Below are positions 1 through 3,000 of a stretch of DNA of 64,000 nucleotides, piece by piece (position 1 is the stretch's first letter; each line of letters begins with the position of its first letter). Made by a program: the position numbers. The stretch is from Escherichia coli (GTDB lineage Bacteria; Pseudomonadota; Gammaproteobacteria; Enterobacterales; Enterobacteriaceae). The DNA lies in the NCBI RefSeq assembly GCF_017348835.2, contig NZ_CP071375.1. One strand, given 5' to 3'.

Positions 1-3000
1 ATCAGCTTCCATAGTGAAGGGGATAGATTTGGCTACGATATTTGGCTGAACTCGCAGCATCTGTCCGGTCGCCGCTGACCCCGTGAAAGTCACCACATCC
101 TGGCTGTCCAGATGATCCAACAAGTCGCCCGCACTACCGCAGATCAGACTAATTGCGCCTTCGGGAACAAGACCACTATCGACAATTGATTTCACCATCG
201 CCTGAGTCAGTTGGGCCGTCGCGGTGGCTGGTTTGATGATGGCTGGCATTCCGCCCAGCCACGTTGGTGCCAGCTTTTCCAGCATTCCCCAGCAGGGGAA
301 GTTAAAGGCGTTAATATGCACTGCCACGCCTGACTTTGAGGTCAGTACATGGCGCGCGGCAAATCCACCTTCTTTCGATAATGGGATCAATTCATCTTCC
401 GGCCACAGCGTATCGTCAGGCAGCTCCCGGATACCGAGGCTGGCGTAAGTAAATAACGTCCCAATACCGCCTTCAATATCAACCCAACTGTCTGCCCGCG
501 TTGCGCCTGTTTGCGCAGAAAGAGCATAGAAACGCTCTTTTTCACTCAGCAGATGTTTAGCGACCGCTTTAAGCATCGCCGCACGTTCGATAAAGGTCAT
601 AGCGCGAAGGGCTGGGGCACCTTTTTCAATGGCAAACAGGCGGGCAGCCGCCATATCAAGACCTTCACTGGTCACTTCCCATAACGCCTCGCCGCTAATA
701 GCGTGATGAATCAAACGGCTACGGCCCCGGCCAGACTGCCAGGTACCGGATAAGAAACTGGCTAACTGCTGCATCGCTACTCTCCAGATGTTTCACATTT
801 CTGTTGCTAATAGTTAAATCACGAATCATAAAAAGCAAGGCGTATTTTAACGAAATGTTAACTGTGCGATCTGTATATCAACTACTAAAAACATTAATGC
901 ACTGATAAATAATGAGATATAAAAATAGGATGCGAAATCCGTCACAGTTCAAACATACAAAATTTGTGATTTTAGTTAACCGTTGTGTAACTTTCATAAA
1001 ACAACGTGATTCGTGTTTTTAATTAATTCACGAAAACTGGAATCGTAAAGGTGATGACGTGACCCAAGAAGAACGCTTTGAGCAACGGATAGCCCAGGAA
1101 ACGGCTATCGAGCCGCAGGACTGGATGCCCGATGCTTACCGAAAGACACTGATCCGCCAGATTGGGCAGCATGCGCACTCCGAGATTGTTGGTATGTTGC
1201 CTGAAGGTAACTGGATCACTCGCGCACCAACCTTGCGGCGTAAAGCCATTCTGTTGGCCAAAGTGCAGGATGAAGCCGGTCATGGTCTGTATCTCTATAG
1301 CGCCGCCGAAACACTGGGCTGCGCCAGAGAAGACATCTACCAAAAAATGCTCGACGGACGGATGAAATATTCCTCCATCTTTAATTATCCGACATTGAGT
1401 TGGGCTGATATCGGCGTTATCGGCTGGCTGGTGGATGGCGCAGCGATCGTCAATCAGGTGGCGTTATGCCGCACTTCTTATGGCCCGTATGCCAGAGCAA
1501 TGGTGAAAATCTGCAAAGAAGAGAGTTTTCACCAGCGTCAGGGGTTTGAAGCCTGCATGGCACTGGCGCAGGGCAGCGAAGCTCAAAAGCAGATGTTGCA
1601 AGACGCCATTAACCGTTTCTGGTGGCCAGCCTTAATGATGTTCGGGCCAAACGATGATAACTCACCAAACAGCGCCAGAAGTCTCGCCTGGAAAATCAAA
1701 CGTTTCACCAACGACGAACTCCGCCAGCGTTTCGTGGATAACACCGTTCCACAGGTTGAAATGCTCGGTATGACCGTTCCTGACCCGGATCTGCATTTTG
1801 ACACTGAAAGCGGTCACTACCGCTTTGGTGAGATCGACTGGCAGGAGTTTAACGAAGTAATTAACGGTCGCGGAATTTGTAATCAGGAGCGGCTCGACGC
1901 CAAACGTAAAGCCTGGGAAGACGGTACCTGGGTACGGGAAGCAGCACTGGCCCATGCACAAAAACAACTTGCCCGTAAGGTCGCATAAGGAGATTCAAAA
2001 TGAGTAATGTTTACTGGCCGTTATACGAAGTTTTCGTGCGTGGCAAACAGGGCTTATCACACCGCCATGTTGGCAGTTTACATGCTGCCGATGAGCGGAT
2101 GGCACTGGAAAATGCCCGTGATGCTTACACCCGTCGTAGCGAAGGATGTTCAATTTGGGTGGTGAAGGCGAGTGAAATTGTTGCCTCGCAACCGGAAGAG
2201 CGCGGTGAATTTTTTGATCCGGCTGAAAGCAAGGTCTATCGCCATCCAACGTTTTACACCATCCCTGATGGCATTGAGCACATGTGAGGTCGGAAATGAA
2301 TCAGTTAACGGCTTACACCTTGCGCCTGGGCGATAACTGTCTGGTGCTCTCCCAGCTGTTGGGTGAATGGTGCGGTCATGCACCGGAACTGGAAATCGAT
2401 CTCGCACTGGCAAACATTGGCCTCGATTTATTAGGTCAGGCACGCAACTTCTTATCGTATGCCGCTGAATTAGCGGGAGAAGGCGATGAAGATCCCTGGC
2501 CTTCACCCGAGACGAGCGCCAGTTCAGCAACTTATTGTTGGTTGAACAACCAAACGGCAATTTTGCCGACACCATTGCACGCCAGTATTTCATCGATGCA
2601 TGGCATGTGGCGCTCTTTACCCGTCTGATGGAAAGCCGTGATCCGCAACTGGCAGCGATTTCTGCCAAAGCAATTAAAGAAGCGCGTTATCACCTGCGTT
2701 TTAGTCGTGGCTGGCTGGAGCGACTGGGCAATGGTACTGACGTATCAGGGCAAAAGATGCAGCAGGCCATCGACAAGTTGTGGCGTTTTACTGCCGAACT
2801 GTTCGATGCCGACGAGATTGATATTGCACTGAGTGAAGAGGGTATTGCGGTTGATCCACGCACTTTACGCGCAGCGTGGGAAGCCGAAGTTTTTGCCGGA
2901 ATCAACGAAGCCACATTGAACGTGCCGCAAGAGCAGGCGTATCGCACTGGCGGTAAAAAAGGACTGCATACCGAACACCTTGGGCCAATGCTGGCAGAAA

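Follow-up and report, generated by a model that had tools for sequence, protein, structure and literature searches.

The Pz-Pa region of Escherichia coli, with its PaaX operators, is said to have been described by Ferrandez, Garcia and Diaz in 2000, by Kim et al. in 2004, and by Fernandez et al. in 2014. Ferrandez et al. reportedly gave, in 2000, a 15-bp PaaX consensus, WWTRTGATTCGYGWT, and we take this motif alone to be the PaaX determinant as originally described. A review (PMC9493321) writes the PaaX site of E. coli as TGATTC(N27)GAATCA and names phenylacetyl-CoA (PA-CoA) as the PaaX inducer, with PaaX competing with RNA polymerase (RNAP) at Px and Pz, acting by another mechanism at Pa, and autorepressing Px; PaaX binding in vitro and release by phenylacetyl-CoA in E. 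coli are described in the literature that it summarizes. The RegulonDB summary of the paaA operon lists CRP(+), IHF(+), and PaaX(-), CRP binding at the region has been reported in vivo and in vitro, and SlyA binds the region in a published EMSA. Park et al. 2013 (PMC3798270) described a 57-bp ArcA-P footprint at the paaA promoter, from -46 to +11, together with repression data. The region is a textbook catabolic switch, in which a CoA-thioester-sensing repressor meets carbon (CRP), architectural (IHF), and oxygen (ArcA) signals. The PaaX switch at paaZ/paaA is already known, and its confirmation adds nothing new on E. coli; what may be of use is a map of the present strain's spacer at the level of coordinates and a caution concerning an obvious TGTGA.

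The window (the whole 64-kb stretch analyzed here) is E. coli chromosome, and in it paaZ and paaA diverge from a 284-bp spacer that we identify with high confidence as the known control region of Pz (paaZ) and Pa (paaABCDEFGHIJK). The paaA product matched the PaaA equivalog TIGR02156 at 517 bits. The cognate repressor gene, paaX, is intact, its product scoring 409 bits against TIGR02277 (cutoff, 264.55) and matching PDB 8A39 (E. coli PaaX) with an E value of 3.6e-205. The spacer differs from that of K-12 by 17 single nucleotide polymorphisms (SNPs), none of which (0/17) falls in the operator hexamers, the core at 931-946, the TTG at 964-966, or the block at 986-991. Two fall outside the hexamers but within the 15-bp PaaX motifs (821 G>A and 1005 T>C), and three are inside the ArcA site (975, 981, and 982); mapped from K-12, the published ArcA sites differ in the window at 3 positions (951-1004) and 2 positions (844-864). 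Up to window position 2493, subtracting 1452868 from an MG1655 (U00096.3) coordinate gives the window coordinate; on that scale the Pz and Pa operators correspond to 1453657-1453696 and 1453875-1453913, and the derived starts to about 1453670 (Pz) and 1453865 (Pa). In the present strain paaK has a stop codon and paaC a frameshift, both being pseudogenes in the lineage. Because these two genes are broken, the switch may now be noninducible. The features are collected in Table 1.

TABLE 1 Features of the paaZ-paaA spacer and of the paaX promoter region, in window coordinates
Feature	Position	Strand	Details and basis
paaZ start codon ATG	772-774	-	Mapped from the RefSeq annotation of strains that are identical or nearly so
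PaaX operator of Pz	789-828	-	TGATTC 828-823, 28-bp spacer, distal arm GAAACA 794-789; 1 mismatch
Pz transcription start, derived	802	-	Park et al. 2013 supplement: paaZ ArcA box 844-864 at -62 to -42
Pz core promoter, inferred	810-838	-	-35 TTGCTT 838-833, 17-bp spacer, -10 AACTAT 815-810
15-bp PaaX motif TTTATGATTCGTGAT	818-832	-	0 mismatches to consensus WWTRTGATTCGYGWT
paaZ ArcA box, a pair of direct repeats	844-864	-	Park et al. 2013 supplement via K-12; block conserved in alignment A1
Best IHF-like candidate TATCAGTGCATTA	895-907	-	1 mismatch to WATCAANNNNTTR; uncertain
Conserved CRP-like site TGCGA-N6-TCACA	931-946	.	22-mer 928-949, center 938.5
ArcA-P region at Pa	951-1007	-	Predicted site 951-1004; direct repeats centered at 1001, 990, 979, and 957
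Pa core promoter, inferred	964-991	+	-35 TTGTGA 964-969, 16-bp spacer, -10 TGTAAC 986-991
Pa transcription start, derived (+/-3)	997	+	57-bp footprint, -46 to 11, must include 951-1004
15-bp PaaX motif AACGTGATTCGTGTT	1003-1017	+	1 mismatch to WWTRTGATTCGYGWT: C1005, T in K-12
PaaX operator of Pa	1007-1045	+	TGATTC 1007-1012, 27-bp spacer, GAATCG 1040-1045; 1 mismatch
paaA RBS AAGGTG; GTG start	1048-1053; 1059-1061	+	Sequence and annotation
Third PaaX operator, Px	10631-10668	+	TGATTC-N26-GAATCG, 1 mismatch; ends 1 nt before the paaX ATG
paaX, cognate repressor gene	10670-11620	+	Intact; TIGR02277 equivalog and PDB 8A39

A reading made from the sequence alone had placed two motif copies in opposite orientation at 817-828 and 1005-1015 and attributed to them PaaX repression of both promoters. 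The copies are present, with the 9-mer TGATTCGTG common to both, at 1007-1015 (+) and 828-820 (-); GTGATTCGTG is exact at 1006-1015 (+), its minus-strand counterpart at 829-820, ATGATTCGTG, has 1 mismatch to it, and the inverted repeat reaches 12 of 13 positions (816-828/1007-1019). The TGATTC hexamer of the Pz copy starts 54 nt away from the paaZ ATG (774), and that of the Pa copy 52 nt away from the paaA GTG (1059). In K-12, WWTRTGATTCGYGWT matches only at 818-832 and 1003-1017 (window numbering), with 0 mismatches and 0.07 matches expected, which is consistent with the 15-bp motif reportedly being the first-described PaaX determinant. Each copy is, however, the promoter-proximal arm of its own two-part operator of about 40 bp that extends toward the gene; the two are inverted copies, as had been proposed, and not partner arms of one palindrome. 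At ≤1 mismatch, the pattern TGATTC-N26-28-GAATCA has just three occurrences in the 64 kb, one in front of each of paaZ, paaA, and paaX, compared with a mean of 0.62 in shuffled sequences, of which 16 of 500 reach three. No exact match to TGATTC-N24-30-GAATCA exists in the window, each E. coli site having one mismatch, and the distal arm of Pz is degenerate (GAAACA here, GTAACA in most relatives). Given the 15-bp consensus match in K-12, the site of the review, and the intact paaX nearby, the Pz and Pa copies are very probably the PaaX operators of the known E. coli control region, in the form of wide-spaced inverted repeats, which bears out the assignment made from sequence.

Comparison with relatives showed the same two-part arrangement. 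The Pa operator (≤1 mismatch) was present in 42/42 other Enterobacterales loci and matched perfectly in nearly all, and in alignment A1 both of its arms are conserved around a spacer of fixed length and variable sequence. The proximal arm of Pz is invariant in 24 Enterobacteriaceae, with the distal arm kept as GAAACA/GTAACA. The distance from the proximal arm of Pz to that of Pa is 177 to 180 bp in at least 24 Enterobacteriaceae genera, although the central 60 bp are only about 50% identical. A higher-order repression complex, in which both operators would act jointly through an IHF- or ArcA-bent loop, fits this fixed distance despite the poorly conserved center, and we regard it as a long shot; no mechanism linking PaaX at Pz and Pa was found described in the literature consulted.

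Regarding the promoters, the hexamer geometry proposed for Pz fits a start at 802; the TTG of its -35 (836-838) and the second-position A of its -10 (814) are invariant in A1, and the 17-bp spacer would contain the PaaX proximal arm. At Pa, the hexamers would fit a start at about 997, and with +1 at this position 865 is the end of the footprint fragment (-132) as well as of the lacZ fragment (-194 from the start codon). TGTAAC at 986-991 is invariant in A1 except for G987, which is nearly invariant, and this block, like TTAAC at 976-980 (also invariant), is accounted for by the ArcA-P site. A first model of Pa (-10 TAACTT at 988-993, +1 at 1000, CRP at -61.5) was revised, since the invariant blocks TTAAC and TGTAAC are ArcA repeats and the supplement of Park et al. 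implies that transcription starts near 997. A sigma-70 consensus scan of 700-1150 gave a single minus-strand match, at chance level, and was not used. For IHF, no exact match to WATCAANNNNTTR was found anywhere in the window; in the alignment column of the candidate at 895-907, matches with ≤1 mismatch appear in 5 genera, and a second 1-mismatch candidate lies at 876-888 (+).

Taken by themselves, the counts of the motif copies would suit a functionless chance feature of an A+T-rich spacer. The 10-mer at ≤1 mismatch is found 9 times in 64 kb against 5.07 expected (not significant), TGATTCG alone is at chance frequency, the 12/13 inverted repeat is reached by 4% of shuffled spacers (marginal), and seven further imperfect inverted repeats lie within the same 316 bases. 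Conservation, however, refutes this reading, as 24 genera share invariant hexamer arms in a setting where the neighboring spacer sequence is about 50% identical; moreover, the sites are confined to paa promoter regions and agree with the published operator consensus, so that chance has a practically negligible probability. The operator feature is far more than chance, with three full two-part sites all in paa promoter regions and conserved across genera. The repeats might instead act in RNA, as hairpins of the paaA and paaZ 5' untranslated leaders affecting translation or stability, given that the Pa operator is part of the leader transcript and that TTCGTG (1010-1015) can pair with CACGAA (1029-1034). 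Yet predicted folding did not improve on that of shuffled sequences, with z scores of +0.43 (1000-1064) and +0.51 (paaZ leader), and on this ground the leader hairpins were rejected; the spacer between the arms is moreover unconserved and shows no compensatory pattern, which makes this highly improbable.

The alternative closest to the sequence-only reading takes the two 10-mers as whole operators, or as arms of one paired element, and lets CRP act from the TGTGA at 965-985. In its favor, the motif copies are real and the 15-bp motif alone was reportedly the PaaX determinant first described. The distal arms, in contrast, stand at a fixed 26 to 28 bp in 42/42 Enterobacterales loci and covary with the proximal arm in the Moraxellaceae, where both arms have changed jointly to TGATAC/GTATCA in 15/15 loci and the enterobacterial form appears in none. 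On the CRP side, TGTGA is indeed present at 965-969, an ETEC study of CRP by ChIP-seq placed its MEME motif on precisely the 16-mer at 965-980 (given as GTTAAGTAAAATCACA, the reverse complement of this stretch in K-12), and according to Park et al. (PMC3798270) the CRP site is overlapped by the ArcA repeats of paaA. However, against the CRP core TGTGA-N6-TCACA the stretch at 965-985 reaches only 7/10, like 188 other positions of the window, and it obtains 3.9 bits (rank 182) on a position weight matrix (PWM) of 14 classical sites, the scores of which are rough. In other genera the TTG at 964-966 is its sole conserved part, TGTGA being replaced by TTGGGG (most genera), TTGCGA, or TTGCTG. The center of 965-980 lies at about -24.5 from the derived Pa start, inside the core promoter and the ArcA-P footprint, and this is no activating position for CRP. 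The peak center of the ETEC study failed as an arbiter between the two CRP-like sites, because its coordinates are offset from RefSeq by 170 to 230 bp depending on position, and the peak lacks the calibration to be placed within 34 bp. As a whole we consider this alternative unlikely, and the TGTGA at 965-969 is probably part of the Pa -35, within the ArcA footprint, rather than a CRP site.

The conserved CRP-like site at 931-946 scores 9/10 on the core, is among five sites of at least 9/10 in 64 kb, and ranks fifth on the PWM. In 43/43 Enterobacterales loci the Pa PaaX arm is preceded, at a distance of 67.5 to 71.5 bp, by a CRP core of at least 8/10, with TCACA invariant. The center of the 931-946 site lies at about -58.5 if +1 is 997 and at -61.5 if +1 is 1000, the start being derived to +/-3. 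This site, and not the 965-980 site assigned by ChIP-seq and MEME, may be the activating CRP site. The 965-985 candidate is doubtful rather than refuted.

For the preferred reading, that of two-part PaaX operators, the following model is very probable. The operators have the form TGATTC-N27/28-GAAWCR, with arm centers some 33 to 34 bp apart, roughly three helical turns. Without inducer, PaaX would occupy the operators of Pz and Pa and the third one before paaX. At Pz it would exclude RNAP, since the operator there reaches from about -26 to +14, counted from the derived start. At Pa the operator lies in the leader, at about +11 to +49 from the derived start and just upstream of the ribosome-binding site (RBS), and for this reason PaaX would block a step that follows the binding of polymerase. 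PaaX would then be released by phenylacetyl-CoA, which PaaK makes. As added layers, CRP and IHF activate, SlyA binds the region, and ArcA-P represses anaerobically through the direct repeats at 844-864 and 951-1004. Motifs, statistics, conservation, and the intact paaX were computed here; the literature supplied the binding by PaaX and its inducer, the footprint of ArcA, and the dependence on CRP and IHF; and the -35/-10 hexamers, the exact start sites, and the choice of CRP-like sequence were inferred, with operator and start positions reconstructed indirectly.

Compared with the Pz-Pa system of E. coli K-12 and W (PMC9493321), the present locus has in common the locus itself, the gene order, the 284-bp spacer, the Pz, Pa, and Px operators, PaaX, and PA-CoA; the differences from K-12 are at the strain level only (the 17 spacer SNPs and the paaK and paaC pseudogenes). 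Like class I CRP promoters (lac-type, about -61.5), Pa has a conserved CRP-like site upstream of a weak -35/-10 and is listed as CRP activated, although the derived position is about -58.5 instead of -61.5. The multirepeat ArcA-P sites of Park et al. (PMC3798270) explain the conserved blocks left over by PaaX and CRP, and the one at Pa overlaps the stretch that had been proposed for CRP in an account from which ArcA was absent. The paaZ-paaA spacers of Moraxellaceae (Acinetobacter and Psychrobacter) are, like that of E. coli, provided with a two-part element before paaA with 26 to 28 bp between the arms, but their hexamers are TGATAC/GTATCA instead of TGATTC/GAATCA. Such a joint shift of the two arms gives a natural pair of operators for testing the way in which PaaX reads its half-sites.

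The pair of PaaX motifs between paaZ and paaA is a real feature that the sequence-only reading recognised rightly, and it has been described in detail before; useful corrections concern the full extents of the operators, the ArcA sites and the doubtful placement of CRP. Gene starts were placed by transferring the annotation of PE164, F2_81 and K-12 onto the window, which is matched by E. coli chromosomes, the pig strains PE164 and F2_81 being 100% identical over the first 14.2 kb. Collinearity with K-12 (locus start at U00096.3 1452869) extends to position 2493. Within the spacer, 17 positions differ from K-12, none of them in the operator hexamers, the 931-946 core, the TTG at 964-966 or 986-991.

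Features of the paa control regions in window coordinates
Feature	Position	Strand	Basis
paaZ ATG	774-772	-	mapped annotation
paaA GTG	1059	+	mapped annotation
paaZ-paaA spacer, 284 bp	775-1058		mapped annotation
PaaX operator before paaZ, TGATTC-N28-GAAACA	789-828	-	operator scan
PaaX operator before paaA, TGATTC-N27-GAATCG	1007-1045	+	operator scan
PaaX operator, TGATTC-N26-GAATCG, ending 1 nt 5' of paaX ATG	10631-10668		operator scan
ArcA-P site at paaA, repeats centred 1001, 990, 979, 957	951-1004		PMC3798270 supplement via K-12
ArcA site at paaZ	844-864		PMC3798270 supplement via K-12
Pz hexamers TTGCTT and AACTAT, 17-bp spacer	838-833, 815-810	-	inferred
Pa hexamers TTGTGA and TGTAAC, 16-bp spacer	964-969, 986-991	+	inferred
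IHF candidate, among the best	895-907	-	
IHF candidate, among the best	876-888	+	

As had been proposed, copies of the motif lie in opposite orientation near both start codons: GTGATTCGTG matches exactly at 1006-1015 (+), and the near-copy at 829-820 (-) reads ATGATTCGTG. They share the core TGATTCGTG (1007-1015 and 828-820), the inverted repeat (816-828 / 1007-1019) extends to 12 of 13 positions, and the TGATTC hexamers begin 54 nt (paaZ) and 52 nt (paaA) from the start codons. By themselves, these copies are statistically weak, with nine matches to the 10-mer at up to one mismatch (5.07 expected), nine to TGATTCG (10.7 expected) and a 12/13 inverted repeat reached in 4% of shuffled spacers. 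A 15-bp PaaX consensus, WWTRTGATTCGYGWT, was reportedly given by Ferrandez et al. 2000. Against K-12 it matches only at 818-832 (-) and 1003-1017 (+), without mismatches (0.07 expected); in the window, there are none at 818-832 (-) and one at 1003-1017 (+). This agreement suggests that the consensus is correct and that these are the operators described in the literature.

In a review (PMC9493321), the PaaX site of E. coli is written TGATTC(N27)GAATCA. Scanning the 64-kb window for TGATTC-N26-28-GAATCA with at most one mismatch returned exactly three sites, compared with a mean of 0.62 in shuffles, of which 16/500 reached three. Because of this result, the two copies are read as the promoter-proximal arms of two separate two-part operators and not as halves of a single one.

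Scanning for relatives of PaaA gave 80 loci, with paaZ divergent upstream in L002-L060. All 42 Enterobacterales loci carry the operator with at most one mismatch, and the Pa-side operator is perfect in nearly all of them. In a 24-genus spacer alignment, TGATTC and GAATC (both at Pa) and GAATCA (at Pz) are invariant, while the 26 to 28 bp between the arms vary in sequence and are constant in length. This conservation contradicts, and excludes, the view that the inverted repeat is a chance feature. The repeats might instead act as RNA hairpins in the leaders, but leader folding is no better than in shuffles (z = +0.43 and +0.51). The proximal arms (828 to 1007) are 177 to 180 bp apart in at least 24 genera (compared with L002-L028), and 872-930 is ca. 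50% identical and nearly indel-free; the constant arm distance suggests that the two halves of the control region are constrained in their relative phase.

Beyond the PaaX sites, the alignment shows conserved blocks at 844-871, 931-946, TTG 964-966, TTAAC 976-980 and TGTAAC 986-991, most of which are accounted for by the ArcA-P data of Park et al. 2013 (PMC3798270). At the paaA promoter, they reported a 57-bp footprint, which takes in three direct repeats in succession and a distal one 22 bp off, and anaerobic repression of paaA-lacZ by ArcA-P even with phenylacetate. Their supplement lists site sequences and positions, which we transferred through exact sequence match in K-12. Within the ArcA-P site, between DR3 and DR2, the window differs from K-12 and ETEC at 975 (C>G) and 981-982 (TA>CG), TATTGT in K-12 becoming CGTTGT. 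With the paaZ box given at -62 to -42, the Pz start would be at 802. For Pa we infer 997 +/- 3, because the 57-bp region (-46 to +11) must contain 951-1004 and the ends of the footprint fragment (-132) and of the lacZ fragment (-194 from the start codon) both fall at 865 if +1 is 997. These starts fit the conserved hexamers, which, like the exact starts, are putative. The Pz operator would then span ca. -26 to +14, with the proximal arm between the -35 and -10 hexamers, and the Pa operator ca. +11 to +49, within the leader. These placements match the review, where PaaX is said to compete with RNA polymerase for Pz and Px and to act differently at Pa (PMC9493321).

Listed regulators of the paaA operon are CRP(+), IHF(+) and PaaX(-). 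No exact IHF consensus occurs in the window. SlyA binds the spacer in EMSA, its proposed K-12 sites corresponding to 814-825, 917-928 and 972-983. CRP binds the spacer in genomic SELEX and ChIP-seq. The TGTGA of the suggested CRP stretch (965-985) is present at 965-969, and the assignment is backed by ETEC ChIP-seq, whose MEME motif is the 16-mer at 965-980 (Haycocks et al. 2015), and by Park et al. (PMC3798270), who place the CRP site of Ferrandez 2000 in overlap with the ArcA repeats. However, its core scores 7/10, as at 188 other window positions (rank 182 with our rough matrix), its TGTGA becomes TTGGGG or similar in most genera, and its centre lies at ca. -24.5 from the Pa start, inside the ArcA footprint as well as the core promoter. 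Coordinates in Table 1 of Haycocks et al. 2015 are offset from H10407 NC_017633.1 by ca. 170 bp at 1.27 Mb and ca. 220 to 230 bp at 1.57 to 1.70 Mb, so its peak centres do not transfer directly to RefSeq positions and the peak cannot separate sites 34 bp apart. We favour the predicted site at 931-946 (TGCGA-N6-TCACA), whose core scores 9/10, one of five in 64 kb (matrix rank 5). In 43/43 loci, a core of at least 8/10 precedes the Pa PaaX arm by 67.5 to 71.5 bp; against this site, its centre in the window would be at -58.5, not -61.5.

In this strain, paaK (9256-10569) has an in-frame TAG at 10006-10008 in place of K-12 Glu251, and paaC (2296-3041) lacks 1 nt present in K-12 at ca. 2494, so that its frame is shifted past about residue 66. 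With both lesions, the phenylacetate pathway, including inducer production, is probably dead. PaaX (TIGR02277, 409 bits; E. coli PaaX structure 8A39, E = 3.6e-205) and its operators are intact; since no phenylacetyl-CoA arises from phenylacetate without PaaK, the operators may stay permanently occupied in this lineage. The paaK internal stop is also annotated in PE164 and F2_81, and paaC as frameshifted in PE164 and intact in F2_81. PE164 has a stop at paaA Gln13 (1095 C>T), its only difference in 14.2 kb, and F2_81 an internal stop in paaZ. Such further independent lesions suggest stepwise decay of the cluster after paaK loss. The right flank is variable: in other E. coli the match to the 14.2-kb query falls into two pieces, and 3' of paaY, where K-12 carries ynbG and the ydbA fragments, pdxI, a partial ORF and azoR are present here (13285-13356, beyond 12200).

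In the paaZ-paaA spacers of Moraxellaceae (Acinetobacter and Psychrobacter; L042, L045-L052, L054-L060), the enterobacterial TGATTC/GAATCA form occurs in 0/15 loci, whereas TGATAC-N26-28-GTATCA is found in 15/15, often on the paaA side as well as the paaZ side. Relative to E. coli, both arms are thus altered in concert, a joint change that agrees with a symmetric reading of the DNA by two identical heads.
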